DNA from: Candidatus Cloacimonadales bacterium
GTDB taxonomy: Bacteria; Cloacimonadota; Cloacimonadia; Cloacimonadales; JAIOQZ01
Assembly: GCA_963665815.1 (NCBI GenBank)
Contig: OY762463.1
Span: 2,912,001-2,976,000, forward strand
DNA: 64,000 nucleotides
Reading direction: 5' to 3'
Shown here: piece after piece, positions 2,814 through 61,486 of the stretch
Layout of the letters: each line of letters begins with the position of its first letter
Numbering within the stretch: the first letter of the stretch is position 1
The notes under the pieces: generated by a model
The model's database searches: none
What the model saw: only the letters and a program-made list of their open reading frames with translations
Told to the model about the DNA's origin: nothing
Translations under genes and position numbers: made by a program

Positions 2814-2959
2814 ATATTCTCCTACATATTGAGATTTTTACATAATAACGTGTTTCTGATTTCATTGTTACCTAATTATGCAAAGGTTCTCATGTTATTT
2901 TTTTGCTTTTTATAAGTCGTATATATCTATTTGTGTAAAGCTTTTTTTCAAGTATTTAC

Positions 2960-3529
2960 TTAATCGTAAGATATTTGGAGTTTGAAATTCCTGTCAGGCA
3001 TGAAGTTTTTCTTACTCCATAAATAGTATCTGTAGTTTCCTGATGCAGATTCAGAATCAGGTTTATAAGCAAAATTGTCTATGGTGATATCTGATTGTAC
3101 TTTCAGCTTATAGGTTACTTCCTCAAATTCTTCTTTCCATTTTTTTGTCGTAAGCAGAATATACTCAACATGATTACCAAGAAAAGGTTGTTTATAGCCG
3201 ACATTATAACTTACAACACTTTCGGGTGGTATCATTACAGTAAAATAAGATCCATGATTATCATTCTTAACAAGAGCGTTTGAAGAGTCTTCACAACAGT
3301 ATGCAAAAATCGAATCTGGTTCCAGATAAGTTGAATCCTTAGGATATGGGTAAAACATAGTTGTTTTCACATATTCATCCGTATTGTTTCTGAAAAAGTA
3401 AATGCCATCAATATAGAAAGCATTTTCTTTCAGAGTAAAATCAATATCCTCCCGGATAAATGAAATCTGCCCTGCCTGAAGCAAATTAAGCACAACAGAC
3501 AGGACAACTGTTAAATATACTTTTCTCAT
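2960..3529 (-). CDS. Secreted hypothetical protein (DUF4424-like)
   Basis: 189 aa ORF with signal peptide; start overlaps the stop of the upstream gene; YILLTTKKW motif resembles DUF4424 proteins. Confidence 0.6.
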   Translation of the reverse strand: MRKVYLTVVLSVVLNLLQAGQISFIREDIDFTLKENAFYIDGIYFFRNNTDEYVKTTMFYPYPKDSTYLEPDSIFAYCCEDSSNALVKNDNHGSYFTVMIPPESVVSYNVGYKQPFLGNHVEYILLTTKKWKEEFEEVTYKLKVQSDITIDNFAYKPDSESASGNYRYYLWSKKNFMPDRNFKLQISYD

Positions 3530-4563
3530 TATTTCAATAATGTCATTTTATTTACAGATAGAATATTGCCGTCAGCTTTGAGCCTGCAATAATATATCCC
3601 GGATGCAGTCTTTCTTCCTGAGCTGTCCTTACCATTCCATGTAACTGAGTTTTCCCCAATAGCCATATTGCTGACTGGGATTGATCGGACTATCTGACCT
3701 TTTGTGTTGAACACTTCTACTTTTACATCAGAGTATTGTTTTTTTAGTGAAAACACTATTTCTGTTTCTGGGTTGAATGGATTCGGATAGTTTGCAATCC
3801 TCAATTCAGATTGAGGAATTGTTTCCTCGTCGATTCCCTGTGAGTAATTATCAAGAGTTATGGTTATTGAATCAGTTGTCCCCGGATCTCCCATATAGCT
3901 GTAAGAATCATACAGTGTTGAGTTGATATAAGTCTGCAGCTGAACTCGCCTACAAGGTAAACTGGAGCGAACATATATACCGTTTGATTGATTTCCCAAG
4001 CTTTGTCCATCCCATTGGTTTCCGTCAAAAGTTATTTCAGCATTATCTACTTCTCTACCGTTAGAATCGAGTAGCTTAACAGTTAAATCTGTAAAAGGAT
4101 TTCCAAGACTGTCAGCATGGCACCACCAGAATATAAAGCTTTCATTGCAATATAATGGCACTATTTTAAGTATATCCCCGGCTGTCAGCGAATTAAGCGG
4201 GGTGCCCTGTCCATACTGGCAAGGACAGACATCACCTGTGATGCTTATATTATCTCCGGCTGGAGTAATTTTTAAATCTGTTCCCAGATCAATTGATGAT
4301 ATTACAGGGGAAGTCCAGATAGTATCATCAGATGAATAATATACATAGAAGTCAACACTTCCATTGTTACAGTTAAATGTGTACTGGAGTGAATCATCGC
4401 GCGAAACTGAATTTGCTCTGCCTAAGATATGTTCCTCCATTGTAATTTCCCAATTTCCCTGATCATCCAACAGTTTAATCTGAGTCAACACAGGTACAAC
4501 AATTGGATTTGCAAACAATATCCCTATAGATATAAATAGAAGATATAGTAATTTTGTTTTCAT
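3529..4563 (-). CDS. Secreted protein with C-terminal FlgD-Ig/T9SS-type sorting domain
   Basis: Signal peptide, GGAGG RBS, C-terminus [14 protein letters not shown]...SGIYYCRL...KMTLLK. Confidence 0.85.
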   Translation of the reverse strand: MKTKLLYLLFISIGILFANPIVVPVLTQIKLLDDQGNWEITMEEHILGRANSVSRDDSLQYTFNCNNGSVDFYVYYSSDDTIWTSPVISSIDLGTDLKITPAGDNISITGDVCPCQYGQGTPLNSLTAGDILKIVPLYCNESFIFWWCHADSLGNPFTDLTVKLLDSNGREVDNAEITFDGNQWDGQSLGNQSNGIYVRSSLPCRRVQLQTYINSTLYDSYSYMGDPGTTDSITITLDNYSQGIDEETIPQSELRIANYPNPFNPETEIVFSLKKQYSDVKVEVFNTKGQIVRSIPVSNMAIGENSVTWNGKDSSGRKTASGIYYCRLKADGNILSVNKMTLLK

Positions 4564-45980: not shown

Positions 45981-46014
45981 ATACAGTATTGAACAAATTA
46001 TTGAATTGACAGGA
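45981..46014 (+). promoter_or_regulatory. Repeated leader ending in TTGACA, copy C
   Basis: ATACAGTATTGAACAAATTATTGAATTGACAGGA. Confidence 0.7.
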
Positions 46015-46082
46015 TTAATTTGTTAATTCAGTCATGATGTAACATTGTAATCTTAGCTTTGCATAATATTGGGAGATTTAAT

Positions 46083-47246
46083 ATGAAACAGATTGTTGCT
46101 TTACTTCTATGCATTCTATTTATTATTTCATGTACTACATCTTGGGTTATTGAGGATGTGGACATTTACAAAGTAAACTCATCAGATCCAGCAATTATTC
46201 GGGCAGATATTGATAAAGAAGATGATATCTCCAAAGTAGCTAGATTAAAGGGGGAAATAGATTTTAATTTTAAGAAGAAAAGATCTTTTTTTCATAAGGA
46301 GCAAACAAGCCTGTTTTCTATTGAATTCACCCCTAAGCTATTGACAAATCTAAATTATCCTTCTGATTACAATGAACTTGTTAACAAAACTAATTTTACA
46401 TTAAGAAACGTTGATAGTTCAAAACTTGTAAAAGCAGATTCTATTGTTGTAAATAAAAATACAAATCAATTTTCTCTTTTATGTATGTTACCTGATGATT
46501 ATTGTTTTTCTGAAGACATTTTAGACTATCTAAACATTAAGTTAATGAAAATACTATGTGATAGCACCTTAGTTGATAGTCTTCTAAGCAAACATACCTC
46601 TGAATTTGATGTAGAAGTAATTTTCAAGAAGTGTGGATATCGAGATGTAAATCCTTATTCTCCATATTTTTACAAAAAGAATAATTTGGGAAATTCACAT
46701 GATCCCTATGATAAAATTGCAAACACTAGCAAAAATTATTACTCCCAGAAACAATCCAACTTGAATATGGGACTGTACAGGAAAGATACTCTTTCTGTAA
46801 AATTAGTTAATTACCACTTTATGCTCATAGATTTCATCAATGAATTTACGAACAAAATTAATATAAATGTTTGGGATGCATATACGCATATTCCTATAAA
46901 TAATTGTAATTTTGACTTCAATTTCAATTATGATTTTTCCAAACTGAACAAACAAGTATTGAAACTGTTTACAAAAGAGAAATATCCCAGAGACTTCTTT
47001 ATTTGGGGAATAAGAAGGATAAGAAACTCTTATTTTTATATTCCCAAGGACTGCTATTATAGAGTTAGTAATGACGATGTTCTTCTGGATCTGAAAATCA
47101 CACATCCTGAGTATCATTATTTCGAGAAAACAATTTCTCTCAAAGATGGTCAAAATACAATTGATATATACATGCACAATATTAAGAATACTATAAATAT
47201 TGATGATTCAAAAGGAAATAGAAACGAGCAATTCAAAGTACATTAA
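46083..47246 (+). CDS. Lipoprotein, paralog of 43593-44600
   Basis: ATG 46083 after GGGAGA; lipobox IISC; shared motifs LPD.YCF.E, VDSL..KH, DAYTH. Confidence 0.8.
   Translation: MKQIVALLLCILFIISCTTSWVIEDVDIYKVNSSDPAIIRADIDKEDDISKVARLKGEIDFNFKKKRSFFHKEQTSLFSIEFTPKLLTNLNYPSDYNELVNKTNFTLRNVDSSKLVKADSIVVNKNTNQFSLLCMLPDDYCFSEDILDYLNIKLMKILCDSTLVDSLLSKHTSEFDVEVIFKKCGYRDVNPYSPYFYKKNNLGNSHDPYDKIANTSKNYYSQKQSNLNMGLYRKDTLSVKLVNYHFMLIDFINEFTNKININVWDAYTHIPINNCNFDFNFNYDFSKLNKQVLKLFTKEKYPRDFFIWGIRRIRNSYFYIPKDCYYRVSNDDVLLDLKITHPEYHYFEKTISLKDGQNTIDIYMHNIKNTINIDDSKGNRNEQFKVH
47090..47245 (+). repeat. 156-bp exact repeat, copy 2
   Basis: Identical to 44444-44599. Confidence 0.95.
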
Positions 47247-47250
47247 TACA

Positions 47251-47284
47251 AAATCCCCCTAGCTCTCACAAGCCAGGGGGATTT
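47251..47284. terminator. Probable bidirectional terminator
   Basis: AAATCCCCCT(A)GCT...AGC(C)AGGGGGATTT stem between convergent genes. Confidence 0.65.
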
Positions 47285-47298
47285 AAATATTATATCAT

Positions 47299-47485
47299 AG
47301 ACTGTGTATAAACGCAAAATAATTAAAATTATTGGTGCTTCATTGTCGCGATTTCGACTCCGCTCAATCAGCTTACCTTATTGCTATCACTTATCTTAAA
47401 AGTTACCTGAGGCCCGATTAAATCGGGAAAGGGTAATATGCTTTTAACAACAGAAACGGCAATAAAAACGTTTTTACACATATCT
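47299..47485. mobile_element. MITE-like element, copy 2 (inverted relative to copy 1, degenerate)
   Basis: AGACTGTGTATAAACGCAA...TGTCGCGATTTCGACTCCGCTCAATCAGCTTA...ACGTTTTTACACA aligns along the reverse complement of 45711-45894. Confidence 0.7.
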
Positions 47486-47493
47486 CAGTATAT

Positions 47494-49272
47494 CTACTGA
47501 TTCTTAATCCAGTTAACAAGTCCTTTTTTCTCAAGGATTTCCATTAATTTATCTGGCAGCGGAGCAAAAGTAAATTCTTTGTCTGCTACCGTAATCTTAC
47601 CATTCATGAAATCAACGTTTACATTGTCTCCCGGTTTGTATGCGTCTACAATCTCAGGATAAACTATAATAGGCAACCCCTGGTTGATTGATGAACGGTA
47701 GAAGATTCTGTTTACGGATTTACATATCACGGCTTTAACACCTGCATGAGCAAGTCCTACAGCAGGGTGCTCTCTCGAGCTTCCGCAACCGAAGTTGTCG
47801 CCTGTAACAATTACATCATCTTTCTGTACGTTATCTGTGAAGTTCACGTCAAAACCCTTGAACAGGTGCGGCATGATTGCTTCAGGATCAGAGCTCAGTA
47901 CGGTGTATGTCAGGTTTCCGGCAAACATCTGGTCTGTGTTCATGTTATCAATATCAGTGTAGTTCCATACGTTTCCGAGTCTTCTGTTATCATCTTCATT
48001 TACTTCGATTGTAGCAGCTTTCTCTTTTTTGTATGGGAATGCATCCTTAGTAGGGTTAGCACGTGGATCGGTAATCTCTCCCTTAAGAGCACTATGTGCT
48101 ACGCAGGCAGGAGAAGCGAGGTAGATTTGAGCTTCTTTATTACCCATTCTGCCAAAGAAGTTTCTGTTGGCAGTAGAGATAACTGTAACACCGTCTGCAG
48201 GGATTCCCTGTCCTGTTCCGAGGCATGGACCGCAGGATGAACCAAGGATACAAGCTCCGGCTTTAATGAAAGTCTGGATTATTCCTTCTTCCATAGCCTG
48301 AAGATAGATCTCCTGAGATGCAGGTGCAACGAGAAGCTGGAAGTCTTTGGCAATTTTTTTGCCTTCCAGAACTTTGGCAGCCTGTCTGAGATCGTCAAGA
48401 CGACCGTTTGTACAGGTTCCGATCAGTCCCTGCTGTACAGGTGTTCCTGCTACTTCAGCAACAGCTTTCACATTGTCTACCTGATGAGGTGCAGCCACAA
48501 GCGGATACAGCTCACTGAGGTTGATTTCTATTTCTTTGATGTATTCTGCATCAGGATCAGCCCAGACACCGTTCTCAATCTTATGACCGAGGAACTCTTC
48601 CAGAACTTCATCCGGTGGGAATACTGCGTTTTTAGCTCCCATTTCGGAAGCCAGGTTCGCCAGTGTCATTCTTTCTGATTGAGAAAGAGTTTTAACACCT
48701 TCACCATGATATTCTATTGAAAGATAGTTTGCACCTGCAGAACCAATCATTCCGATGATCCACAGGGATATATCTTTTGCGTATACGCCTTCGTTAAGCT
48801 TACCTGTAAGAGTTACCTTCATTGAGTCAGGCACTCTGAACCAGGTCTCACCGCGCTTCCAGATACCGGCGGATTCTGTTCTGTCGATTCCTGCAGCAAG
48901 AGCGTTGAATGATCCTGCTGTACAGGTGTGACTGTCAGATCCAACTACAATCATACCCGGTCTTGCATGGTAAGACATAATCTGGTGACAGATACCTTTT
49001 CCGGCATCGTAGAAGTTTTTAACTCCCTGATAGTTTACAATATCTCTGATAGTCTGATATTGTGTTGCCAGTTTAGCAGATGTAGGAGGAGCATTATGAT
49101 CAAGTACGATCAAAAGCTGATCAGGATCAGCAACTTTATCTCCACCCATTTTTTTGAATGTATTATGAATACTCGCTGTATTATCGTGAGTAAGTACAAT
49201 ATTCGGTTTTCTGAAAACAATTGCACCTTTCTCAGCACCGAGTACTTTTTCAACAAAAGTTTTTCCAGCCAT
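47494..49272 (-). CDS. Single-chain homoaconitase-like hydratase (fused large+small subunit; resembles fungal Lys4)
   Basis: THDN, LDH, GICHQIM, DSHT, GTCTNGR, CGPCLG, NRNF.GRMG, NTD, GCGSSREH. Confidence 0.85.
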   Translation of the reverse strand: MAGKTFVEKVLGAEKGAIVFRKPNIVLTHDNTASIHNTFKKMGGDKVADPDQLLIVLDHNAPPTSAKLATQYQTIRDIVNYQGVKNFYDAGKGICHQIMSYHARPGMIVVGSDSHTCTAGSFNALAAGIDRTESAGIWKRGETWFRVPDSMKVTLTGKLNEGVYAKDISLWIIGMIGSAGANYLSIEYHGEGVKTLSQSERMTLANLASEMGAKNAVFPPDEVLEEFLGHKIENGVWADPDAEYIKEIEINLSELYPLVAAPHQVDNVKAVAEVAGTPVQQGLIGTCTNGRLDDLRQAAKVLEGKKIAKDFQLLVAPASQEIYLQAMEEGIIQTFIKAGACILGSSCGPCLGTGQGIPADGVTVISTANRNFFGRMGNKEAQIYLASPACVAHSALKGEITDPRANPTKDAFPYKKEKAATIEVNEDDNRRLGNVWNYTDIDNMNTDQMFAGNLTYTVLSSDPEAIMPHLFKGFDVNFTDNVQKDDVIVTGDNFGCGSSREHPAVGLAHAGVKAVICKSVNRIFYRSSINQGLPIIVYPEIVDAYKPGDNVNVDFMNGKITVADKEFTFAPLPDKLMEILEKKGLVNWIKNQ

Positions 49273-49305
49273 GTTTTCTCCTTATAAAACCATTTCATTT
49301 GTGCT

Positions 49306-49540
49306 ATCCTTCGACAAGCTCAGGATGACAAACTCAATCTTGTTCGGTCTGTAGAGCCGTAGCATGCTACGGCTATTATTACCCACACCATTCGCAAGGT
49401 TTTCAACCATTGCGAAGGGGTAAGTCATAGTTTGAGCGACCTTGCGAATGGTCTTAAGACCTTCGCAATGGTCAATCACTCAAAACTGTTTCATGTTTAC
49501 AATTCCACCATTCGCAAGGTTTTCAACCATTGCGAAGGTG
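49306..49540. repeat. REP-like cluster inside the operon
   Basis: CCTTCGACAAGCTCAGG; GTAGAGCCGTAGCATGCTACGGCT; 33-bp CACCATTCGCAAGGTTTTCAACCATTGCGAAGG at 49386 and 49506 with an inverted variant between them. Confidence 0.8.
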
Positions 49541-49554
49541 CAGCAATTAATTAT

Positions 49555-51360
49555 CTAACTGAATATACCACCACGGTGATAGATTTCCATCTGAACGTCT
49601 GAGAATTTATTTCCCTGAACTGTTTTACCCTTGGTTTTATTGGCTAATTCACCTGTTTCAAGGTTAACACTGATAATGTTACCGTCTTCAAGTTCCAGAG
49701 CATCAATAGAATCATAAGTAAGGATAGGGAATGCTGCATTGATTGCGTTTCTTTCGTAGATTGCACCGAAGGATTCAGCAACAACAGCCTGAACACCGAG
49801 AGCTTTGAAGCAATCCACAGCCTGTTGTCTGGAGCTACCGCTTCCGAAGTTCTTATGAACAACAACAATATCGCCTTTCTCCGCTCTTTTTGCGAAATCT
49901 TCGTATCCAGCCAGATTATCGAATGTATATTGTCCCATCTCGTTGATATCTGTGATAGCAAGGTATCTGTTGTGGTAAATCATGTCGGTATCAATATTAT
50001 CTTCTTTGATGTACCATACTTTTCCTTCCAGAACGAGTGGTTTTTCGGTAACTTCAGCTTTAGCTTTTGCAGCATGAGCTTCTTCTTTTACTTCTTTAGA
50101 AGTAAATACAGCAGGTTCAGCAGGAATTGCATCTGTTGTGGTTACATAACCGGCAACTGCAGAAGCTGCCACTGTAGCAGGAGATGCAAGATAAACGCTT
50201 CCTTTACCTTGTTTACCGGGGAAGTTTCTGTTACCGGTACTGATGGTGATTTCACCTTTACCATTCTGTCCAACCTGTCCTGCAGCACAACCGGCACAAC
50301 CGGCGTTAGAAACAAGAGCACCTGCTTTTTTGAATATCTCGATCAGTCCGTTTTCAAGACATTGATTCCATACTTCATCTGTAGATGGAACTATCTTGAG
50401 AACAACGCCCGGAGCTATTTTTCTGCCTTTAAGGATATCGGCAGCAGCTTTCATATCTTCATAACGTCCGTTTGTACATGATCCGATGAAAGCAGAGTCG
50501 ATTTTGATCTTGTCTTCAACAGGTACGGGAACAGAATCATGAGGAGCACCAGGTCTGGAAACCATAGGCTTAAATTCTGTAATATCAATAGTGAATTCTT
50601 CAGCGTACTCGGCATTTTCGTCAGCATAAACAGGCTCGATTTTCTTACCTGAACGTGCTTCACAGAAATCAATAACATCTTTATTTGGCGGGAACATTAC
50701 AATAATAGCACCCATTTCAGTACCCATGGAAGCAATGGTTATTCTTTCATCAAGAGTAAGCCCGTCGATTGCTTCACCGTACATTTCTACGGAGTAACCG
50801 AGAAGTGTATTAGCACCGAATTTATTCAGAAGGTTAAGCACGATATCCTTAGCGGAGATATTAGCAGCTTTTTTGCCTTCGAATGTGATTTTTGCTGATT
50901 TTGGAACTTTGAACCAGGTTTTACCGAAAGCCCAGGCAGCAGCAATGTCCTGATCTCCCATTCCCTGTCCGAATGCACCGACAGCACCGAGAATGTTAGC
51001 ATGAGAGTCAGTTGTTACAGTTGTTGATCCCGGAACAGCGAGACCTTCGTGGATTACTATATGAGTTCCGATTCCAACGTCGATATCAAATACCTTAATA
51101 GCATGATCTCTTGCGAAATCACGGCATATTTGCTGGTTTACAGCGTACTTCTGATCTGATCCGGTAGGATTACAGTCAAAAGTAAAGAAAGTCTTGGAAA
51201 CATCGTCTATCGGAAGGTTATTATCTTTGATGTTTTTTACAACATTAGCTCCGCCAAAGTCTCTGGCAGCTCTTACATCCATTCTTACATCAACGATATC
51301 ACCCGGTTTTACAACATCCTGATCTGAGTGATTAGCTAAAATTTTTTCAATAATTGTCAT
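49555..51360 (-). CDS. Second single-chain aconitase-family (LeuC/LeuD-type) enzyme with divergent active-site motifs
   Basis: GSCTNGR and GCAGC supply three Fe-S cysteines; NRNFPGKQG, DNIDTD, GSGSSRQQA. Confidence 0.85.
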   Translation of the reverse strand: MTIIEKILANHSDQDVVKPGDIVDVRMDVRAARDFGGANVVKNIKDNNLPIDDVSKTFFTFDCNPTGSDQKYAVNQQICRDFARDHAIKVFDIDVGIGTHIVIHEGLAVPGSTTVTTDSHANILGAVGAFGQGMGDQDIAAAWAFGKTWFKVPKSAKITFEGKKAANISAKDIVLNLLNKFGANTLLGYSVEMYGEAIDGLTLDERITIASMGTEMGAIIVMFPPNKDVIDFCEARSGKKIEPVYADENAEYAEEFTIDITEFKPMVSRPGAPHDSVPVPVEDKIKIDSAFIGSCTNGRYEDMKAAADILKGRKIAPGVVLKIVPSTDEVWNQCLENGLIEIFKKAGALVSNAGCAGCAAGQVGQNGKGEITISTGNRNFPGKQGKGSVYLASPATVAASAVAGYVTTTDAIPAEPAVFTSKEVKEEAHAAKAKAEVTEKPLVLEGKVWYIKEDNIDTDMIYHNRYLAITDINEMGQYTFDNLAGYEDFAKRAEKGDIVVVHKNFGSGSSRQQAVDCFKALGVQAVVAESFGAIYERNAINAAFPILTYDSIDALELEDGNIISVNLETGELANKTKGKTVQGNKFSDVQMEIYHRGGIFS

Positions 51361-51370
51361 ACACAGCCCC

Positions 51371-51937
51371 TTACTTAATCATAAGGCCTTTAGCCATCAT
51401 AACAAGCGGATTGAATGTCGCGAAGTCAGCTTGATGGATAAGAACAGTTTCAACTCTCTGAGGTCTGCCGTCACCTTCTTTAGCGTGGCAGGCGATTGTG
51501 TTAACAATCTCGTCACAGAGACCAACCTGAGCAGCAAGGATAGCACCAGAGAATGGGTGTCTTGCACATTTACCGTTATGTGATTTCTGGTATTTACCAT
51601 CTACACATTCGATTTCTTTGAGTTTACCGACATCATGAAGAAGTCCACCGGAGTAAAGGATGTCCATATCTATTTCATATGGCATAGCCTTGTATGTAGA
51701 TTTTTTAGCATCAGCCAGTGCTGCTGCACCGAGAGTTACAGCTATAGTGTGTTCAATAAGATTCACACCATGAGTTTCTGTAAGTAGAGTAAATGGTATT
51801 TTTTCAAGGTCTTCAGGTTTCCATCCACCTTCTTCTGCGCCTTTAACCCAGCATTCTACGGTTTTATTTTTGATATCTTCATCTTTGATTTTATTTAAAA
51901 TCGGAGCAAAAACTTTTTCAATATAATTCTTCATCAT
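51371..51937 (-). CDS. HD-domain metal-dependent phosphohydrolase
   Basis: LIEH...LLHDVGK...RH...H...AD motif set. Confidence 0.85.
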   Translation of the reverse strand: MMKNYIEKVFAPILNKIKDEDIKNKTVECWVKGAEEGGWKPEDLEKIPFTLLTETHGVNLIEHTIAVTLGAAALADAKKSTYKAMPYEIDMDILYSGGLLHDVGKLKEIECVDGKYQKSHNGKCARHPFSGAILAAQVGLCDEIVNTIACHAKEGDGRPQRVETVLIHQADFATFNPLVMMAKGLMIK

Positions 51938-51955
51938 TTCTCCTTTTTAGAAAAT

Positions 51956-51989
51956 AGACCCTTGTTGCTCCGAAGAGCAGCAAAGGTCT
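51956..51989 (-). terminator. Intra-operon hairpin with C(UUCG)G tetraloop (partial terminator or stabiliser)
   Basis: Minus strand AGACCTTTGCTGCTC-TTCG-GAGCAACAAGGGTCT followed by ATTTTCT. Confidence 0.55.
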
Positions 51990-52031
51990 GTAAATTAACA
52001 TCTATTACAGCTTATAAGAAAGCCGGTAATA

Positions 52032-53219
52032 TTATTTAAGTTTAGCAATAATTGCATCAGCCATTTCTGTAGTTGAAGCAGCTCCCTGATTAAGAACTTC
52101 TTGAGAACCGCGAAGTTTAAGCATATCGTAAGCTTGTACTTTACCTTCTTCAATTACTTCTGCAACAGCTTTTCTGATTTTTGCAGCCATTTCTTTTTCA
52201 TCGATATGATCAAGCATCATACATGCTGAAAGAACCATAGCGATAGGATTAACAATTGATGGGCTGAAGTTTTCGTATTTTGGAGCTGAACCGTGAGTAG
52301 GTTCGAAAATAGCTACTTCTTTACCAATGTTAGCACTACAAGCGAATCCGAGACCACCAACGAGTCCTGCGAAACCATCAGAAACGATATCACCGAACAT
52401 GTTTCCGGCTACGATTACACCGTAAGTTTCAGGATTTTTTGTAAGCCACATCATTTGTGCATCGATGTTTGTGTTCCAGAGATCGATTCCGGGATATTCT
52501 TTTGCTATTTCTTTTGCGAGTGCAAGCATCATACCGGATGTTTCTCTGATTACGTTTGGTTTTTCACAAAGTGTTACGCTTTTGTAACCGAACTTCTCAG
52601 CATATTCAAAAGCAGCTCTTACGATTCTTTCTGTGTACTTTTTTGTAAAAATACGAGTAGAAACTGAGAGTTCTTCTTTTGGACACCATGCAAAGTTTTT
52701 CATTTTTGGGTGTGTGTTAATTGCGTTGTAAACTTCATCACTTGGATTAGTCCACTCAACACCACCGTAAAGACCTTCTGTATTCTGACGGAATACTACA
52801 ACATCAACTTCTGGTTCTTCGATTGTGTTGTTTGGTCCTTTGCGGATGAAGTTAAGAGGGTTGTTTTTGAATGTACGACATGGACGTGTACAGATATCTA
52901 AGTCAAAGTGTTGACGTAATGCAACGATGGGACTGTAGTAAACATAGCCTTTGTCCTGAAGTTCAGGAGCAAGTTCTGCTGCAGCATCAGATTTTGGTTT
53001 TGATGTGATCGCTCCAAAAAGACTGATTTTGTGTTCTTCAAGTAAATCCAGTGTTCTTTGTGGTAAAGGATTACCTTCTTTACACCAGAATTCCCATCCG
53101 ATATCTGCATGTACGTAGTTTGCTTCGAAACCTGCTGCTTCGAGTACTCTTACAGCTTCAGGTAAAACAACTTTTCCAATACCATCTCCGGGCATTAAAA
53201 CTATTGTTCTTTTAGACAT
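52032..53219 (-). CDS. Isocitrate/isopropylmalate dehydrogenase family; probable homoisocitrate dehydrogenase
   Basis: PGDGIG, LFGAITS, YYSPIVALR, NTEGLY, NMFGDIVSD, FEPTHGSAP. Confidence 0.85.
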   Translation of the reverse strand: MSKRTIVLMPGDGIGKVVLPEAVRVLEAAGFEANYVHADIGWEFWCKEGNPLPQRTLDLLEEHKISLFGAITSKPKSDAAAELAPELQDKGYVYYSPIVALRQHFDLDICTRPCRTFKNNPLNFIRKGPNNTIEEPEVDVVVFRQNTEGLYGGVEWTNPSDEVYNAINTHPKMKNFAWCPKEELSVSTRIFTKKYTERIVRAAFEYAEKFGYKSVTLCEKPNVIRETSGMMLALAKEIAKEYPGIDLWNTNIDAQMMWLTKNPETYGVIVAGNMFGDIVSDGFAGLVGGLGFACSANIGKEVAIFEPTHGSAPKYENFSPSIVNPIAMVLSACMMLDHIDEKEMAAKIRKAVAEVIEEGKVQAYDMLKLRGSQEVLNQGAASTTEMADAIIAKLK

Positions 53220-53267
53220 AGTTCCTCCTTAAATAATAACTATTTGTCTTATTTTATTTTTATTGTT

Positions 53268-54842
53268 CTAATCTAATACTTCTCTGACACTGTCGATGAT
53301 TGTTCCGTCTACCCATTTAATTGCAGCAACAACTTTGTCACCAAGTTTCGGATTATCCGGAACACCGCAGATTCTTTCTGCTTCATCTTTCAGTTCTTCG
53401 ATTGTTTTTATAGGAAGTCCTGAGCCTTTCACTTTATCAATAAGATCCTGACGTTTAGGATTAATTGCAATTCCGCGTTCTGTAACGATAACATCTACCA
53501 GTTCTCCCGGTCCACAGATTGTTGTGACAGCTTCACGTATGACAGGAAGCCTATCTCTGAACAGCGGAATAGGAAGGATAGTACACTTAGCGTGCAGACA
53601 GTTCTGCCATCCACCGATACCATGAAGAAGATAACCGTCTGAGTGTGTTGCAACATTACCGTTATAATTAACGTCAACTTCTGTTGCACCGAGTATCATA
53701 ACGTCCATCATGGTGGTGTAATTACCTTTACCGTGGAAATCATAGCAATGGAATATGGAAATATCCTGATGGTTTGTGTTATCTCTCATTGATCTTACTG
53801 CTTCAAGGTCAAATGTCTGAGCATCCATCATAATATCAAGGTAGCCTTCTTCCAGCATTTTTACGGAATACTGAGTAGATCCACCAACAGCAAAACGCGC
53901 TCTGATGTTACGTTTCTTCAGCATTTCGTGGAAGTAAATACCAATTGCAAGAGATGTTCCGCCTGCTCCTGCCTGGAAGCAGAAACCATCGTAGATGAGT
54001 CCTGCAGCATCACAGAATCTCGCTGTAAGATCAGCTATTCTGAGTCTGTCCGGGCTTTTGGTAATCTGAGTTGTACCGGAAACGATTTTTTCAGGGATAC
54101 CGATTTTATCGAATTTAACAACCTGATCAACATAGTTTCCTTCTACCTGCATTGGAAGGCATGGAAAATCTACGAGGTTATCTGTTACAATCATTACATG
54201 TTCAGCATAATGATAATCTGCCAGAGCGTAACCGAGTCCACCACATGCGGATGGTCCGTACATACCGTTTGCATTACCAAATTTATCTGCTGAAGGAGCA
54301 GCAATAACAGCGATGTCAATCACTACTTCACCATCCTGAATAGCCTGATATCTTCCACCGTGGGATCTGAGAATTGCCATTCCACGCATTTTACCTTTAG
54401 AGCAGTAGCGACCGAGAGGTCCGTTCATGGAACCTTCTATATGATGTATAGTACCATCTTCAAGGTAATCAATAATTTCTGCATGACATGGGAATGATGC
54501 TGATGGGAACCATACAAGGTCCTTTACTCCCAGTTCAGATGCTATTGAGAATACCTGATTAGCAACAAGGTCACCATTTCTGAGGTGGTGATGAGTGGAA
54601 ATAACCATTCCGTCTTTCAGACCTGCATTCTGAAGAGCTCTTTTAAGGTTTTCTCTTTCGCTGCCGACATCTATAACTTTGTTACCGTCTGCAGGATAAT
54701 CCAGAGAAGTAGAAATTTTTGGTCCGAATTTTCTTCCGGTAGGTCTGTGCTGACCAACACCTTTAAAAGCAACTTCTTCTTTTCCATTTATTTCCGTAGG
54801 AACTAAGCGTCCTACTGCATTTTTTACGAGATTTACTGACAT
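53268..54842 (-). CDS. citF: Citrate lyase alpha subunit-like CoA/ACP transferase
   Basis: GLKDGM.IS.HHHLRNGD, RSHGGR, CGGLGYA..D, FQAGAGG, ILGATEVD, VTERGIAINPKR. Confidence 0.9.
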   Translation of the reverse strand: MSVNLVKNAVGRLVPTEINGKEEVAFKGVGQHRPTGRKFGPKISTSLDYPADGNKVIDVGSERENLKRALQNAGLKDGMVISTHHHLRNGDLVANQVFSIASELGVKDLVWFPSASFPCHAEIIDYLEDGTIHHIEGSMNGPLGRYCSKGKMRGMAILRSHGGRYQAIQDGEVVIDIAVIAAPSADKFGNANGMYGPSACGGLGYALADYHYAEHVMIVTDNLVDFPCLPMQVEGNYVDQVVKFDKIGIPEKIVSGTTQITKSPDRLRIADLTARFCDAAGLIYDGFCFQAGAGGTSLAIGIYFHEMLKKRNIRARFAVGGSTQYSVKMLEEGYLDIMMDAQTFDLEAVRSMRDNTNHQDISIFHCYDFHGKGNYTTMMDVMILGATEVDVNYNGNVATHSDGYLLHGIGGWQNCLHAKCTILPIPLFRDRLPVIREAVTTICGPGELVDVIVTERGIAINPKRQDLIDKVKGSGLPIKTIEELKDEAERICGVPDNPKLGDKVVAAIKWVDGTIIDSVREVLD

Positions 54843-56062
54843 AATTCTTCCCTCCAGTTTTCAGCGAGGATACCTGATTTGATAGCCATATCGATTGTTC
54901 TTTCTGCTCTTTTCACAACAGGCGGATCAATCATTTTTGACCCGAGAGATACAACTCCAAGTCCTTTTTCTGTTGCTTCTATGAAAGCATTCACGATTTT
55001 TTTAGCTTTATCGATTTCTTTTTCATTTGGAGCAAAGTATCTGTGAATTACATCAATCTGACGTGGGTGAATACAGCCCATTCCGTCAAATCCAAGTGAT
55101 TTTGATTCCAGAATAACATCTCTGAGAGCATCCATATCGGAAACATCTGAGAATACGGAGTCAATAGGCTGAATACCGGCTGCTCTGGCAGCGTTTACAA
55201 CCTGTGAACGTGCGAAGAATGTTTCTCTTCCTTCTTTAGTTCTCTGTGTTCCAAGGTCTGCTGTGTAGTCTTCAAGCCCTATTGCCAGAGATACAACATT
55301 ATCAGATGCTGTAGCAATTTCGTATGCTTTGAGTACGCCCATAGCACTTTCGATGATAGGCATGTAGTACACAGGATAATCCATGTTATTTTCTTTCTGG
55401 ATTCTTTTTACTTCATCTTCTACCTGTACAACATGATCTTTTGATTCACATTTTGGAATCAGGATTAGATTTACATTGTAAGGTACAATATATTTAAGAT
55501 CTTCAAGTCCCATCGGAACCTGATTAATTCTTACCATTCTTTCTGCTCCGTACAGTATGCAGGCGAGGAGGGTATTCCTTACGAGAATACGTGCTTCTCC
55601 TTTTTTTGCATGAGCAACAGAGTCTTCCAGATCAAGAATCAGTCCGTCAGGAGAATGAACTCCGGCATTAATAGCCAATTTAGGAGTATTACCCGGAAGA
55701 TAAAGTCTTGATCTTCTGTAACGGTCTTTTTCTGTGTGATATTTGTTTTCAGGAAGCATTTCCGGCAGATACATCTTGTCAGTATCTTTTATCTGCTTAA
55801 CGGCATATTCGATACGTGCCGCCATAACATATTCCAGTGCTCCAGAATCAACAATTTTGACATCAGCATTTTCGATATCAAAGAAACGGATTACTTTTTC
55901 TGCAAATTTTTCAATCTGTGCTCCAAAGAGTATCTTGACTTTACTTTGCAGATCAATCTTGATACCTCCGGATTCTGTCAGTTCTATTTCAACATAACAG
56001 TCGGAACGAACAGATTTACCTTGATTTCCGGCTTTACCTATCTTTGCCAATTCTTCCTCCAT
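54833..56062 (-). CDS. citE: Fusion of citrate lyase ACP (CitD-like, N-terminal) and beta subunit (CitE-like lyase)
   Basis: N-terminal AG...SD..V...S.V...FG..I...D.GAL....AR (CitD); RRSRLYLPGN, LDLEDSV, VRIN, IES, G.EDY, GFDG..CIHPRQ, MIDPP (CitE). Confidence 0.88.
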   Translation of the reverse strand: MEEELAKIGKAGNQGKSVRSDCYVEIELTESGGIKIDLQSKVKILFGAQIEKFAEKVIRFFDIENADVKIVDSGALEYVMAARIEYAVKQIKDTDKMYLPEMLPENKYHTEKDRYRRSRLYLPGNTPKLAINAGVHSPDGLILDLEDSVAHAKKGEARILVRNTLLACILYGAERMVRINQVPMGLEDLKYIVPYNVNLILIPKCESKDHVVQVEDEVKRIQKENNMDYPVYYMPIIESAMGVLKAYEIATASDNVVSLAIGLEDYTADLGTQRTKEGRETFFARSQVVNAARAAGIQPIDSVFSDVSDMDALRDVILESKSLGFDGMGCIHPRQIDVIHRYFAPNEKEIDKAKKIVNAFIEATEKGLGVVSLGSKMIDPPVVKRAERTIDMAIKSGILAENWREELCQ

Positions 56063-56065
56063 GTT

Positions 56066-57358
56066 TTATAAGTATTTTTCTAAGAATTTATATTCGTCTT
56101 CAAGTTTACCGTTATGGGCAATACAAGCTTTTCTTATTTCGAAAGGCAGGTCTGAATCTTTTATTTGTTTGCTGTAATCATTCAGTAATGTTGCTTCCAT
56201 AAACGGCATTAACGCAGCTGAGAATGAATCTGAAGCTTCTCTGGAAAACTCACAAGGCAGATTATCAACTGCACAGTCTGCAAAGCCTTCACCTTCGAAA
56301 CCATCCTGAATCTCACTTGTTTCAGCATTGTAGACAAACACAGGTTTGTCCGGATATGTAGCCTTAACTGTAGGTTCGACTGATCCGTTAATGTCACAGG
56401 TTATATCTCCTATTATAATCATTTTCTGATCTTTGCCTTGTACTTTTTTTAATTCTTCACGAGGTAAAAATACAGGATAGTCAGGAGTCCAGTATATTGC
56501 GTTAACGTAAATTGAAGTATGTTTGATGTATGGTGCGAAAATTGATTTGTATTCTTTGCCGTTTTTAAAGTAGTGTTGTAGATCAAAATCTGAGCCGTCT
56601 TTTCTTGCAGCAAGATGATGCTCTTTAAATACAACAACATAAAGCTTCTTGTTAGAGTAATTACCTTTCAGTTTTTCCAGTTCTTCCGGCTGAATATACT
56701 CTATAGGTAATGTCTCGAGTACTTCACGGCAACCACGTGCAACATGTCCGTATCCAAGTAGCATTATGTTGAATGGTGCAAGCTCTTCAGGTAGTCCGTT
56801 TGTACTGATTTCTTCTCCGATTACTTTCAGTTCTTCCAGAGCATTCTCTAAAGAAGAATACTCATATGACTGTTTAACTTTAAGGAATGGTGTTTCAATA
56901 CCGTTTTGTTTGAGTAGACGCTGTCCTGCTCCCCATAAAGTATCAATCATTCCGGCGTTTCCTGCGAATTTGCCGAAGAATACAAGTCTTTTTCCATCTT
57001 TGTTAACAATTCGTTCGTAGTCGAGTAATGTAGTTTTGGTATCGAGAAACTTCTGAAGTAAAGGCATGTTATAATCCTGCCCTTTGATTGTATGTGAAAA
57101 GAATAAGTGAGGGATTCCGGGGATAATTTTATCAATTGGAATCTCTTTTACTCCTGAAATAAAATCACAATCAGATAAATCTTCTGAGAACACTGCACCT
57201 GCTTTTTCATATTCATCCTGCGTATAAATACGTATATCAGATGGTTGAATAACAACTTCAAATCCTTTTTCCACAAGAGTTTTCACCGCTTCAGGATTAA
57301 GTGCAACGCGTCTTTCCCATTTGTTCTTTGTTTCTTTCATGATACCAAGTTTCTTCAT
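56066..57358 (-). CDS. Lysine-ketoglutarate reductase (saccharopine-forming; like the LKR domain of AASS)
   Basis: WERRVAL.P, GVKE, FFSHTIKGQ..NM.LL, LDYE, FGKFAG.AGMID, DITCD..GS, VDNLP.E..REAS..F; ATG 57358 after AGGAG. Confidence 0.87.
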   Translation of the reverse strand: MKKLGIMKETKNKWERRVALNPEAVKTLVEKGFEVVIQPSDIRIYTQDEYEKAGAVFSEDLSDCDFISGVKEIPIDKIIPGIPHLFFSHTIKGQDYNMPLLQKFLDTKTTLLDYERIVNKDGKRLVFFGKFAGNAGMIDTLWGAGQRLLKQNGIETPFLKVKQSYEYSSLENALEELKVIGEEISTNGLPEELAPFNIMLLGYGHVARGCREVLETLPIEYIQPEELEKLKGNYSNKKLYVVVFKEHHLAARKDGSDFDLQHYFKNGKEYKSIFAPYIKHTSIYVNAIYWTPDYPVFLPREELKKVQGKDQKMIIIGDITCDINGSVEPTVKATYPDKPVFVYNAETSEIQDGFEGEGFADCAVDNLPCEFSREASDSFSAALMPFMEATLLNDYSKQIKDSDLPFEIRKACIAHNGKLEDEYKFLEKYL

Positions 57359-57403
57359 TAGCAAGCTCCTTTCGAATTCAAAATTTTATTTATAACCAGA
57401 TTT

Positions 57404-58726
57404 CTAGTTATAGTATTTTTCTTTAATGTGAATACCAAGTTCTTCAAGTTCTTTAAGAACAGGTTCGTAAATATCAGCAGTTTTAGGCATGAGAACACCT
57501 TTTCTGGTAATTTTGCCACTGAGTATAAGATGTACACCGATTGCGAGAGGAAGTGCAACAGTTCTAGACATGGATGAGTCTCCATTTGGAATACCGTAAT
57601 CAATCATGGTTGATGTAATACGTTGTTCTTTACCATTAAACTCTGCAACAAACTCATGATGAAGCACAAGCAGGTCTCTTTCACCTTCTTCATAAGACAT
57701 TTTATCCAGCATCAATGCTGTAAGAACGTCAATCGCTCCACCTTTTTTAATAGGAATTGGTGTTTCATCAAAGAATCCAAGCCATCCCATCTTCTTGAGG
57801 ACAATGCCCTTAGGATTGAGATTAAGCTTTTCAGCAAGAATTTTCTCAAGATTATCTGAGTTATCAAGTTTCATGATTTTTTCAGCGATGAAATCACGAA
57901 CTGTTCCTGTGAGGTTGTCATGAATTACTTCTTCCGAGAAGAATCCAAGCTGACCGAATACGTACCATAAGTCACAATGACTGATATTTCTGAATGTTCC
58001 TCTGTACATTGTTTTAACGTGTTTAAGATCGTAAAGATCAATGTAACTGAGTGAATCTCTGTTAGGATAAGCTTCCAGTGTTCCGTATCCTGGAACATCT
58101 ACCAGCCAGTAGTGAGAGAACAGGTTTTTACCTTCGATCTCTACAACTTTTCCGTCACGGAGATATTTTGCATTATTTGATGCAGCAGAAAGTACACCTT
58201 TTGGTGCCCATGAGAATTTGTATCCAAGTGGATTGGTGTTAGCTTCAGGAGCAGGAAGTCCACCGCAATATGACATGAATGATACAATTTTTCCGCCCTT
58301 TTCTTCCACTTCGTGGAATATTTTCATGGCAGACATGTGATCTATACCAGGGTCAACCCCGATTTCGTTAAGTATTGTAATTCCGTTTTCAACAGCCTGA
58401 TCATGCATTGCACGCATTGCCGGGCTTATGTAGGAAGCAGTAGCCATGTTAACTTTATGCTTAATACATTTTTCAGCAACTACAGGATGCATGAATGCCG
58501 GCAGAATACTGACAACGATGTCTTTTCCGATAATATACTCGTCAAGCGAATCAGAGTTTGATCCGTCAATTTGAACTGCTGTCACGTTTGAGTATGGTTT
58601 TGCAAGCTTTTCAGCTTTTTCAAGTATGATGTCCGCAAGGACGATTTCGTAATTGTGTTCCGCTAAATAGTCTACGAGAGGTTTGGAAACCAAACCGGCA
58701 CCGAAAATTGTAACTTTTTTCGACAT
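57404..58726 (-). CDS. Saccharopine dehydrogenase (glutamate-forming; Lys9/AASS-SDH type)
   Basis: GAGLV, TASY, NEIGVDPGIDHM, SYCGGLPAPE..NPLGYKFSW, YPNRDS, RGTFR, MSRTV. Confidence 0.93.
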   Translation of the reverse strand: MSKKVTIFGAGLVSKPLVDYLAEHNYEIVLADIILEKAEKLAKPYSNVTAVQIDGSNSDSLDEYIIGKDIVVSILPAFMHPVVAEKCIKHKVNMATASYISPAMRAMHDQAVENGITILNEIGVDPGIDHMSAMKIFHEVEEKGGKIVSFMSYCGGLPAPEANTNPLGYKFSWAPKGVLSAASNNAKYLRDGKVVEIEGKNLFSHYWLVDVPGYGTLEAYPNRDSLSYIDLYDLKHVKTMYRGTFRNISHCDLWYVFGQLGFFSEEVIHDNLTGTVRDFIAEKIMKLDNSDNLEKILAEKLNLNPKGIVLKKMGWLGFFDETPIPIKKGGAIDVLTALMLDKMSYEEGERDLLVLHHEFVAEFNGKEQRITSTMIDYGIPNGDSSMSRTVALPLAIGVHLILSGKITRKGVLMPKTADIYEPVLKELEELGIHIKEKYYN

Positions 58727-58756
58727 GAATCCTCCAAATTTTTACAACTTGGAGAA

Positions 58757-58786
58757 AAAGTTTCACTTTCCAGAAAATGATGTCAA
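58757..58786 (-). promoter_or_regulatory. Putative sigma70 promoter of the saccharopine/homocitrate operon
   Basis: TTGACA at 58786-58781 on the minus strand with a weak -10; GGAGG RBS before ATG 58726. Confidence 0.45.
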
Positions 58787-59212
58787 TGATTTAAATGAAA
58801 ATATGGATCTTTTAATTTTAATCTCACATCTTAAATAAAATTGCGTTCGTTAATATTCAGGGAAATATTCAAGTTCAAATAATGATTCTCTCAAGAGCTG
58901 TTTAATCGCTTTATAATTCAAATTGAAAAATATCATGTAAAATACGAAAAACCCTATTTGTTAAATAACAAAACAAATAAGCAAACTGTAATACTATGAT
59001 ATTCAGAATGTTAATACTGCGAAATGTAAAATAAGTATTTTCCGGAATGCAAATAATATACATAAATTACTTTTTGAAAGTAACCTCCAAAGACATCATT
59101 ATATACTTCCTGTTTTTTCCTCGTATTTCTTACAAGATTTTTTTTGATTGACACTCAGAAAAATTTGTATCAGTTTATGTACAAATACTTTTAAACTTGC
59201 AAAGGAGAATGT

Positions 59213-61486
59213 ATGAAAAAAACTATTATACTATTATTGTTTGTGTCAATTTACATGTTTTTGTCATCTGTAGATGTACAGAATCAGGTTCAGAAATTAA
59301 TGGCAAGTGATGGAGAAAACAGCGATTATATGGGTTGTTCAGTTGATATTGACGGTAATTGGCTTGTTGTCGGAGCTAAAGGCGATAATGACTATGGTGA
59401 AAGCAGTTGATCAGCTTATGTGTTTCAGTATGACAATGGAACATGGTCTCAGCATTCAAAGCTTGTTGCGGGAAGCGGTAATATGCATGATGACTTTGGC
59501 TATTCTGTTGCAATCTCAGGAAGCTATATTGTAGTTGGTTGTCCGGGAGATGACAATGCAGTCAACGATGTAGGTTCTGTCTATATATATCACTATGATA
59601 ACAATAACTGGACATTCATGACTGTACTTTATGCTTATGATGCTGCTTACGCAGACTATTATGGAAACTGTGTAGATATTTCGGGTAATTATGCAGTTGT
59701 TGGAGCTTATGGTGATGATGATGGAGGATCAGAATCAGGATCAGCCTACGTTTACGAGCTCAGTAATGGGAATTGGATATTCGACACAAAACTAACTGCC
59801 TCAAATCCTTCTTCCGGTGATAATTTCGCCTACTCTGTTAGTATTGACGGTGACAGAATAATATGTGGATCAGACAGAGAAGACAGCCGAGGTTATAATT
59901 CCGGTCTGGCTTACATTTATCAGCTTCAGAATGGTAACTGGCTGGAAAGATGGACAGTTTATGGAGCAGATACCTGGAGTGAAGAGCATTTTGGTATTGC
60001 TGTTAATATCAATGGTGATTATGCAATTGCTGGTGCAACGGGACAGGATGATAATGGAGATGATTCAGGTTGTGCTTATATCTATCACTATAATAATGAT
60101 GCATGGTATCAGCAGACAAAACTTGTTCCATCCGATGGAGCAGAGAATACAAGATTCGGAAGTTCAGTATCAACTTACGGAAATTCTGCAGTGATAGGTG
60201 CAATAATGGATAATGCTCAAGGTAGTATGTCCGGTGCAGCATACATTTTTCAGTTGGACAGTGGAAACTGGGTAGAAAGAAAAAAGATGCTTCCATCTGA
60301 TGGGGCTGCCATGGACTTCTTTGGAGGCAACGTAGCAATGTATGGAGCTAAAGCAGTTGTAAGCTGCGAACGAGATGATACTAATGCATCTGATGCAGGT
60401 GCAGCTTATATGTATACTATTGCAAATTATTATGTTCCACCTTCAGCACAGCAGGAAGTTGTGTCAGCAGATGACACTTCGGAAATACCCTTTAACGATG
60501 TTGAAGTAAGCTTAAGATTTACAGGAAGCCATGTAGAAACAACAATAGATTTAACTAAGAATTTTCAGGAACCAAATGTAGTTGGAGGATTACCTGCAGG
60601 AGTTGTTAATCTGGCGAAAAACTACTGGCAAGTTGAATCTTCTGCGGGGAATGTCGGAACTTATGACATAACTTTCGATCTTAGTGGAGTTTCAGGAATT
60701 GAAAACTTTGCTACACTAAAGATTCTCAAGAGAGATGACGACAGCTCTCCATGGCAGGATGTAGTTGCTGATCTGGGAGCAACTCTTGTTTATAACAATC
60801 CTTATATCACTGTGCAGGGATTAAACGCCTTCTCAGAGTTTGTACCGGCAGGAGATAATGACAACTCACTTCCTGTTACTCTATCTTTCTTCAATGCAGT
60901 TCAGACTTCTGATAATAACGTTCTTATTGAATGGAGTACTGCTTCCGAAACTGAAATGAATGGATTTAACCTTTATAGAAACAACGAAAACAATAAAACT
61001 AATGTGGCTTTAGTAAATACTCAGATTATTAACTGCAATAATTCTTCAACAGGTGGAACATACAGCATAAGAGATTTCGATGTTGATTATAATAATACTT
61101 ATTACTACTGGTTGGAAAGTGTTTCTCTTGATGGCAATAGTGATTTCTACGGACCTGTCAGAGTTACAATTGAGAAGAAAAAAGATGATGATAATCCTGT
61201 AGAATTTATAAAACTTGGAATCCAGGGAATCTATCCCAATCCATTCAATCCTGAAACAAACATAGATTACTCTGTTAAGGAAGAAACAGCAGTTCAGGTT
61301 TCAGTATATAACATGAAAGGTCAGAGAGTTAAGACTCTGGTGGATAAATCTGTTTCAGCAGGTGATCATAAAGTGGTCTGGCAAGGTGACTCAGATTCAG
61401 GAAATTCTGTATCATCCGGTGTATACTTTGTGAAGATGATTACAGGGAACCACATAGAAACTCGTAAGATTGTGCTGATGAAATAA
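59213..61486 (+). pseudogene. Secreted FG-GAP repeat beta-propeller protein with FlgD-Ig/T9SS-type tail, interrupted by one in-frame TGA at 59408-59410
   Basis: ORFs 59213-59410 and 59420-61486 are in the same frame and read ...DYGESS*SAYVFQY...; other repeats read SGSAYVY, SGLAYIY, SGCAYIY. Confidence 0.75.

Follow-up and report, generated by a model that had tools for sequence, protein, structure and literature searches.

Lysine belongs to a small number of amino acids whose anaerobic breakdown is taken to depend mainly on a radical aminomutase (Kam) route. Saccharopine lysine catabolism, which occurs in animals, plants and some bacteria, employs AASS together with ALDH7A1/P6CDH, the dehydrogenase of piperideine-6-carboxylate (P6C) and α-aminoadipate semialdehyde (AASA), and proceeds through 2-oxoadipate to glutaryl-CoA. 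In the upper α-aminoadipate pathway (fungi, Thermus and methanogen Aks enzymes), fungi isomerise homocitrate with two enzymes, and in the methylcitrate cycle the labour is likewise split over two enzymes, PrpD and AcnB. Citrate lyase (CitDEF, EC 4.1.3.6; Escherichia coli and Klebsiella) comprises acyl-carrier protein (ACP), lyase and transferase parts, and citramalate lyase is a homologue of it. Here we describe an eight-gene operon in a 64,000-nucleotide (nt) stretch (the window) of the genome of a Candidatus Cloacimonadales bacterium, in which saccharopine enzymes are encoded together with a citrate-lyase-like pair, a β-decarboxylating dehydrogenase, an HD-domain protein and two hydro-lyases. 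Gene content and conservation suggest, with a probability of roughly 0.6 in our judgement, that the operon serves oxygen-independent lysine catabolism by the α-aminoadipate pathway run in reverse.

Genes of the operon

The host genome is closed (3.96 Mb, 98.7% complete), and the window corresponds to C1:2912001-2976000 of it (genome label G000). Gene families were assigned with Pfam and NCBIfam profiles, and relatives of known structure were taken from Protein Data Bank (PDB) matches. The eight genes lie on the minus strand in one direction between positions 47494 and 58726, and all open reading frames (ORFs) occupy the places, and follow the order, reported in a preliminary description of this DNA, with Pfam and NCBIfam agreeing on the families. 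That description had also called the genes mostly tightly spaced: the intergenic distances in operon order are 39, 3, −10 (an overlap), 48, 94, 10 and 282 nt, so that six gaps of −10 to 94 nt conform to it and the last, of 282 nt, does not. The features of the locus are as follows.

57404..58726, minus strand: SDH, saccharopine dehydrogenase, glutamate-forming (Lys9 / AASS C-terminal domain type), 440 aa (Pfam, PDB)
56066..57364, minus strand: LKR, lysine-2-oxoglutarate reductase of the AASS (catabolic) type, 432 aa (Pfam, PDB)
54833..56062, minus strand: CitD-CitE fusion (CitDE), acyl-carrier domain plus citryl-ACP-lyase-like TIM barrel, 409 aa (NCBIfam)
53268..54842, minus strand: CitF-like acyl-ACP:tricarboxylate transferase, alpha subunit, 524 aa (Pfam, TIGR01584)
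52032..53219, minus strand: β-decarboxylating dehydrogenase of the isocitrate dehydrogenase (ICDH)/homoisocitrate dehydrogenase (HICDH) family, candidate HICDH, 395 aa (Iso_dh)
51371..51937, minus strand: HD-domain protein, constant partner of the dehydrogenase, 188 aa (Pfam HD, HDIG)
49555..51360, minus strand: AcoA, hydro-lyase with fused LeuC/HacA-type large and LeuD-type small parts, 601 aa (NF001614)
47494..49272, minus strand: AcoB, second fused hydro-lyase, 592 aa (hacA_fam)
49273..49554, minus strand: AcoA–AcoB spacer, 282 nt, repeated palindromic units and strongly folded RNA (folding against shuffles)
58727..59419, minus strand: upstream non-coding region, presumed promoter region of the operon (no ORF of at least 80 aa)

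SDH scores 279 bits on Sacchrp_dh_C and 83 bits on Sacchrp_dh_NADP, and its structural relatives are yeast Lys9 (2axq, E 2e-93), the Magnaporthe saccharopine reductase (1e5l, E 3e-90) and the SDH domain of human AASS (5l78, E 9e-82). LKR (AlaDh_PNT_N, 85 bits) matches the LKR domain of human AASS (8dda) over residues 6–429 of 432 with E 2e-81, whereas its match to fungal Lys1 (E 4e-18) covers residues 8–139 alone, in agreement with its earlier assignment to the catabolic AASS type. The preliminary description had placed the semialdehyde dehydrogenase outside the window and proposed to seek it in the rest of the genome, where a P6C/AASA dehydrogenase equivalog (NF050084; 781 bits, cut-off 730) indeed occurs at C1:716836-718383. 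Thus, the locus shares an AASS-type LKR, SDH domains and P6CDH with known saccharopine catabolism. It differs in that LKR and SDH are separate proteins with SDH encoded before LKR, in that P6CDH lies 2.2 Mb away, and in that the operon proceeds to a lyase/hydro-lyase/dehydrogenase module.

In CitDE, an acyl-carrier domain (residues ~8–97) precedes the TIM barrel (HpcH_HpaI, residues ~114–398). The CitD domain contains a conserved serine in an [R/K]SD motif, one alignment column away from the serine of the E. coli ESGD motif, which we take to be the attachment site of the prosthetic group. The CitE domain, 39% identical to E. coli CitE, falls below equivalog level (TIGR01588, 277.2 bits against a cut-off of 443.4, 166 bits short). 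CitF (Pfam CitF, 450 bits) is 37% identical to its E. coli namesake and is the only CitF in the host genome. Compared with CitDEF, all three functional parts are present, whereas CitD is fused to CitE, CitE scores far under its cut-off, and the neighbours are α-aminoadipate-type and lysine-catabolic genes and not a citrate carrier or oxaloacetate decarboxylase.

The dehydrogenase (Iso_dh, 261 bits) is the only member of its family in the host genome. Its top NCBIfam models are those of AksF, a homoisocitrate dehydrogenase (278 and 266 bits; cut-off 500), and its closest solved structures are 6lky, a putative NAD-dependent ICDH, and the Thermus HICDH, than which it is ~60 residues longer, with two insertions. 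In an ungapped reading, its motif S-P-I-V-A-L-R corresponds to S-L-N-V-A-L-R of E. coli Icd, which puts Ile at the position of Asn115 and keeps Ser at that of Ser113; these two E. coli residues presumably hold the γ-carboxylate of isocitrate. Val stands at the position of Arg85 of the Thermus enzyme, a residue that presumably also binds this γ-carboxylate and confers isocitrate activity, the R85V variant retaining homoisocitrate activity, and Ile-Val stands at the position of Leu-Leu in E. coli LeuB.

AcoA and AcoB each carry the Pfam Aconitase and Aconitase_C domains, are 33% identical to each other and are the only members of their family in the host genome. AcoA exceeds the cut-off of NF001614 (406.7 bits against 385) and stays under that of hacA_fam (369.6 bits against 385.7), with PDB matches to 4nqy, 4kp1 and 4kp2 (E ~5e-68). 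AcoB exceeds the hacA_fam subfamily cut-off with 486.9 bits, and its best PDB match is 4kp2, the large subunit of Methanocaldococcus jannaschii homoaconitase (E 8e-107). The dehydrogenase and both hydro-lyases remain below every ICDH and aconitase equivalog cut-off. The module thus resembles the upper α-aminoadipate pathway in its superfamilies, in the proximity of AcoB to 4kp2 and in that of the dehydrogenase to AksF, and the presence of two hydro-lyases agrees with the isomerisation by two enzymes in fungi. It differs in the lack of a homocitrate synthase, in its small-domain loops (see below), in the fusion of large and small hydro-lyase subunits and in the direction that we propose.

Conservation of the lysine genes with the module

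According to the preliminary description, its reading would fall if SDH and LKR were not co-conserved with the other six genes, and comparative analysis shows that they are. Among 41 Cloacimonadales genomes (the host and 40 relatives), LKR and CitF occur in the identical 11 genomes, and the remaining 30 contain neither. The P6CDH equivalog is confined to carriers as well (5 of 11, against 0 of 30 non-carriers). Seven of ten CitF-centred loci from related genomes preserve all eight genes in the same order, and the arrangement is therefore not due to chance; as for the other three, L015 lacks SDH in the available DNA, and L020 and L022 end at contig ends. In the two families from outside the genus, the operon is 57–83% identical. 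When species genomes were scanned with an LKR alignment, 80 loci were obtained, 46 with an LKR at least 57% identical (Cloacimonadota type) and 34 from other phyla. CitDE comes after LKR at 31 of 36 Cloacimonadota-type loci that extend at least 3 kb downstream, and of the 20 that extend at least 9.5 kb, 16 contain CitDE, CitF, ICDH, HD and AcoA. In the other phyla, P6CDH adjoins LKR at 12 of the 34 loci.

The module is missing at five Cloacimonadota-type loci, including L037 (6324-19027) and L049 (5089-15806). Downstream of SDH-LKR, both of these encode a remote KamA-family radical SAM protein (535 aa, with 83 bits under the cut-off), the CoA-transferases A and B, a HemL-like aminomutase or aminotransferase, a thiolase, a permease for amino acids and another Sacchrp_dh protein. 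This gene set looks catabolic too and may represent another undescribed lysine route.

The same linkage exists in a second phylum, so that the synteny extends beyond the phylum of the host. Four of the five LKR-bearing genomes from other groups (two Melioribacteraceae, one Bacteroidales bin and one Krumholzibacteriota bin) carry a CitF ortholog of 65–71% identity; none was found in the fifth, a 1.6-Mb Thermoplasmatales bin. In one of the Melioribacteraceae (G041), genes for ICDH, CstA, HD, a single aconitase-family protein (Aco), a PrpD-like protein, CitDE and CitF converge within ~20 kb on P6CDH (818 bits), SDH and LKR, and the ICDH is 74% identical to the window dehydrogenase. The other (G042) has the same module plus insertions, its LKR and P6CDH being located elsewhere in the genome.

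Among G041 and 60 relatives (n = 61), CitF occurs in 49 genomes, P6CDH in 50 and LKR in 27. Of the 61, 47 have both CitF and P6CDH, 2 have only CitF, 3 have only P6CDH and 9 have neither; because the genomes are related to one another, the figures describe an association and not a statistic. All 27 LKR-positive genomes carry both CitF and P6CDH. G041, G042 and a third carrier, G043, additionally encode a monomeric ICDH (1229–1279 bits) and an aconitase of 755–764 aa, so the cluster proteins are extra paralogs there, and G042 and G043 also have a LeuB/LeuC-type pair. By their identity of 64–74%, the window proteins are orthologs of these cluster proteins. That the module is linked to lysine catabolism is, in our view, well supported by two lineages.

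The second hydro-lyase differs between the two lineages. AcoB is 36% identical to the single Aco of Melioribacteraceae, AcoA has no counterpart there, and at the second hydro-lyase place stands a gene of the PrpD family (MmgE_PrpD_N, 247 bits; L115:6410-7834 in G041 and L117:2759-4192 in G042). No PrpD homolog was found in the host genome, and AcoA and the PrpD-like protein therefore appear to fill one of two hydro-lyase steps in alternative ways. One protein seems to have been replaced by a non-homologous one in a module that is otherwise orthologous. A PrpD-family protein adjoining one aconitase-family protein resembles the pair of the methylcitrate cycle, whereas the cluster contains neither methylcitrate synthase nor methylisocitrate lyase, and the next enzyme is the β-decarboxylating dehydrogenase. 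The G042 cluster is interrupted by a YoeB toxin gene and a TonB-dependent receptor.

The dehydrogenase itself is distributed more widely. It is 70–86% identical across very distant phyla, whereas LKR is just 44–51% identical between phyla; identities of 80–85% are found in Acidobacteriota, Aminicenantes, Omnitrophota and the cultured Caldithrix abyssi (85%). The public records name the family 'isocitrate/isopropylmalate dehydrogenase family protein' or similar, and nothing finer. In a metagenome scan with the dehydrogenase as query (80 loci), the HD gene comes after it in 48 of the 57 loci that are long enough to show one, and an aconitase-family gene is present in 25 of 45. Twelve long loci have unrelated housekeeping genes as neighbours of the core. 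Dehydrogenase and HD therefore form the tightest unit. A physical link to lysine genes is characteristic of Cloacimonadota and, partly, of Melioribacteraceae; elsewhere the ICDH-HD core usually occurs by itself.

Proposed substrates and direction of the pathway

In the route that we propose, LKR and SDH would convert lysine and 2-oxoglutarate through saccharopine into glutamate and aminoadipate semialdehyde, which the P6C/AASA dehydrogenase encoded elsewhere would oxidise to 2-aminoadipate. A postulated aminotransferase would yield 2-oxoadipate, which the ICDH-family enzyme would reductively carboxylate to homoisocitrate. AcoB and then AcoA would turn homoisocitrate through cis-homoaconitate into homocitrate, and CitDE and CitF would cleave homocitrate by the citrate-lyase mechanism into 2-oxoglutarate and acetate. 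We give about even odds to the complete route in this form, with a new ACP-dependent 'homocitrate lyase' operating without CitC, CitX and CitG and with the HD protein as a new accessory of the dehydrogenase; its proposed net reaction, lysine + 2-oxoglutarate + CO2 → 2 glutamate + acetate, would stand or fall with it at the same even chance. The substrates of the six downstream proteins, the direction of the dehydrogenase and the division of the half-reactions between the hydro-lyases are inferred.

The reverse aminoadipate reading was already put forward in the preliminary description. Co-conservation, the P6CDH gene, the failure to find homocitrate synthase, Lys2, kamA and lysA in the host genome and the second phylum all came out in its favour, and the following observations weigh against it. 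Neither the dehydrogenase nor the hydro-lyases reach an equivalog cut-off for HICDH or homoaconitase. The small-domain loop, which we assume to set specificity between homoaconitase and isopropylmalate isomerase, reads YLAI/YLTI in AcoA, NLTY in AcoB and KYTY in the Melioribacteraceae Aco; the YLRT of methanogen homoaconitase (2pkp) is found in none of these three, and the AcoA loop is nearer to YLVY of isopropylmalate isomerase 3vba, although the rule may fail outside methanogens. The P6CDH equivalog is missing from 6 of the 11 carriers, which hold generic aldehyde dehydrogenases with succinate-semialdehyde or lactaldehyde dehydrogenase as best models and scores below cut-off. LKR is missing from 22 of the 49 CitF-positive Melioribacteraceae relatives; 20 of these 22 retain P6CDH, which would fit another route to the semialdehyde. 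Of the 23 metagenome loci in which the dehydrogenase is flanked on either side by at least 8 kb, 6 have CitF and 1 has LKR/SDH, and the core is therefore uninformative on lysine in most lineages. As for maturation of the lyase, CitG and CitX gave 0 hits in the host genome (profile search and tblastn with the E. coli proteins), and for CitC the profile search yielded no more than 24 bits, in an ORF of 175 aa, tblastn with E. coli CitC being empty; CitG was also absent from all 10 additional carrier genomes (the E. coli positive control was detected), the search for CitX and CitC covering the host genome only. The close approach of CitF to the citrate lyase model, the annotation of its orthologs and the state of the diaminopimelate genes in the host count on the same side and are taken up below, with the readings that they would favour.

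The module might act on C6 compounds, as an ordinary citrate lyase, aconitase(s) and isocitrate dehydrogenase. In one variant it would ferment the glutamate/2-oxoglutarate released by SDH (2-oxoglutarate + CO2 + NAD(P)H → isocitrate → citrate → oxaloacetate + acetate), in the other interconvert citrate and 2-oxoglutarate. CitF, with 498.5 bits on TIGR01584, is just 3 bits under the citrate lyase alpha cut-off of 501.45, and the CitD domain slightly exceeds its own (TIGR01608, 64.8 against 63.5 bits). The operon encodes the only aconitase- and Iso_dh-family proteins of the host, and the dehydrogenase keeps the Ser aligned with E. coli Ser113. Moreover, the orthologs of the operon's CitF and CitDE in Ignavibacterium album, a CitF and a CitE-CitD fusion, are taken in its genome paper as an ordinary, ATP-independent citrate lyase, with citrate fermentation or an unconventional reverse tricarboxylic acid (TCA) cycle as possible roles (PMC3362086); the accessible part of the Melioribacter paper contains no discussion of CitF or the fusion (PMC3534657). 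The C6 explanation nevertheless appears unlikely. In G041–G043 the orthologs coexist with a canonical ICDH and aconitase, two hydro-lyase steps are conserved where citrate requires one aconitase, Ile replaces the Asn115 equivalent, and CitE, with 277 bits, stays well below its cut-off of 443. CitC, CitX, CitG, a CitT-type citrate carrier and citrate synthase (tblastn with E. coli GltA) were not found in the host genome, and the module tracks P6CDH, an aminoadipate-forming enzyme (47 of 49). On these comparisons, the paralogs, the two hydro-lyase steps, the dehydrogenase residues and the low CitE score make a citrate/isocitrate set unlikely.

The genes could also serve synthesis, as a fungal-type aminoadipate/saccharopine pathway in which the lyase complex condenses an acetyl unit with 2-oxoglutarate; all steps but the semialdehyde one are reversible in principle. 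The searches of the host genome that the preliminary description had proposed bear on this point. They found DapA (339 bits, C1:54871-55719) and no LysA (best hit 29.5 bits, cut-off 297.9), which leaves room for the biosynthetic reading. Homocitrate synthase/LeuA was not found either (two weak HMGL-like hits of 73 and 35 bits in 673- and 594-aa ORFs; tblastn with E. coli LeuA empty), and a substitute would be needed. Sub-cut-off hits of at least 80 bits to the lysA model occur in 2 of 11 carriers (G002 and G004) and in ~18 of 30 non-carriers. However, LysA exceeds its cut-off in just 1 of the 41 Cloacimonadales genomes, and in many non-carriers the search drew a blank, so its absence from the host says little on direction. 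Its rarity suggests that lysine auxotrophy is widespread in the order and that diaminopimelate serves the cell wall alone. G042 and G043 carry a LysA above cut-off and thus have no need of the module for lysine synthesis. A Lys2-type aminoadipate reductase was not found in the host genome (NAD_binding_4 occurs solely in 310–344-aa ORFs), and the semialdehyde enzyme is the equivalog of an oxidising P6C dehydrogenase. LKR is of the catabolic type, SDH-LKR is accompanied by thiolase and CoA-transferase genes in other Cloacimonadota, and a lyase-type condensation lacks thioester hydrolysis as a driving force. Synthesis is therefore very unlikely, and the catabolic direction is favoured.

Highly improbable is a third explanation, that the module shortens another 2-oxoacid, for example through a reversed citramalate or isopropylmalate route, and that its link to lysine is regulatory or accidental. 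The hydrophobic AcoA loop (3vba being an isopropylmalate/citramalate isomerase), the Ile-Val of the dehydrogenase at the LeuB Leu-Leu position, the kinship of citramalate lyase with citrate lyase and the many metagenome ICDH-HD-Aco loci without lysine genes nearby (the majority) would agree with it. It leaves unexplained the conserved operon with LKR and SDH, the P6CDH-SDH-LKR neighbourhood in G041 and the co-occurrence with P6CDH (47 of 49), and G042 has its own LeuB/LeuC pair.

No hit to lysine 2,3-aminomutase KamA above cut-off was obtained in the host genome, so the usual lysine fermentation is missing. The preliminary description knew of no pathway of the kind proposed here, and our literature search, judged partly on titles and the beginnings of abstracts, likewise found no description of one. 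If the reverse aminoadipate reading is correct, it would constitute a second anaerobic lysine route, leading to glutamate and acetate with NAD(P)-linked and Fe-S enzymes alone, and would change models of amino-acid fermentation in digesters, sediments and guts rich in Cloacimonadota, Ignavibacteria, Calditrichia and their relatives. It would also extend the citrate-lyase machinery to a new class of substrates, provide a case of physiological reductive carboxylation by a homoisocitrate-dehydrogenase-type enzyme and assign a function to a dehydrogenase family that is very widespread and lacks a specific name. The module is present, at least in part, in cultured organisms (the dehydrogenase in Caldithrix abyssi; CitF and CitE-CitD in Ignavibacterium album), and the idea is therefore directly testable.

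HD protein, non-coding regions and flanking genes

The HD protein scores 43 bits on Pfam HD and 37.6 bits on HDIG. Its predicted structure (pLDDT 88) matches best the HD domain of YhaM (TMq 0.69, E 6e-5), other matches being generic HD folds; its Atlas look-alikes are 'HD domain' clusters only, and neither these nor the fold search points to a function. In 10 of 14 orthologs, Ala or Ile stands in place of the His of the HD doublet, which persists in 4, the subgroup of the window (LLHDVGK); the Asp and several further His residues, by contrast, do not vary. These substitutions suggest that the metal site may be unusual.

The AcoA–AcoB spacer (49273-49554) contains a 33-nt unit twice, an inverted copy of it and an additional GC hairpin. 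Its RNA is predicted to fold with a minimum free energy of −96.4 kcal/mol (z = −6.3 against shuffles). The exact 33-nt unit has 2 copies genome-wide, both within this spacer, and in G003, which belongs to another genus, the spacer measures ~40 nt. An Rfam search of positions 46000-60500 gave zero matches at E up to 1, and with no match upstream of the operon there is therefore no lysine riboswitch. Neither σ70-like promoter hits (39, against 35 ± 6.4 in shuffles) nor terminator-like sites (10, against 8 ± 2.8) were enriched in a scan of the operon region. Three sequencing runs from a single study contain this DNA, none of them recorded as RNA.

Large secreted proteins with C-terminal sorting domains of type IX secretion flank the operon at 36553-42006, 59420-61486 and 3-4563. 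The set includes a 1817-aa Calx-beta protein, an FG-GAP repeat protein and an InhA-like MAM protein, and such type-IX cargo is in keeping with a protein-degrading lifestyle.

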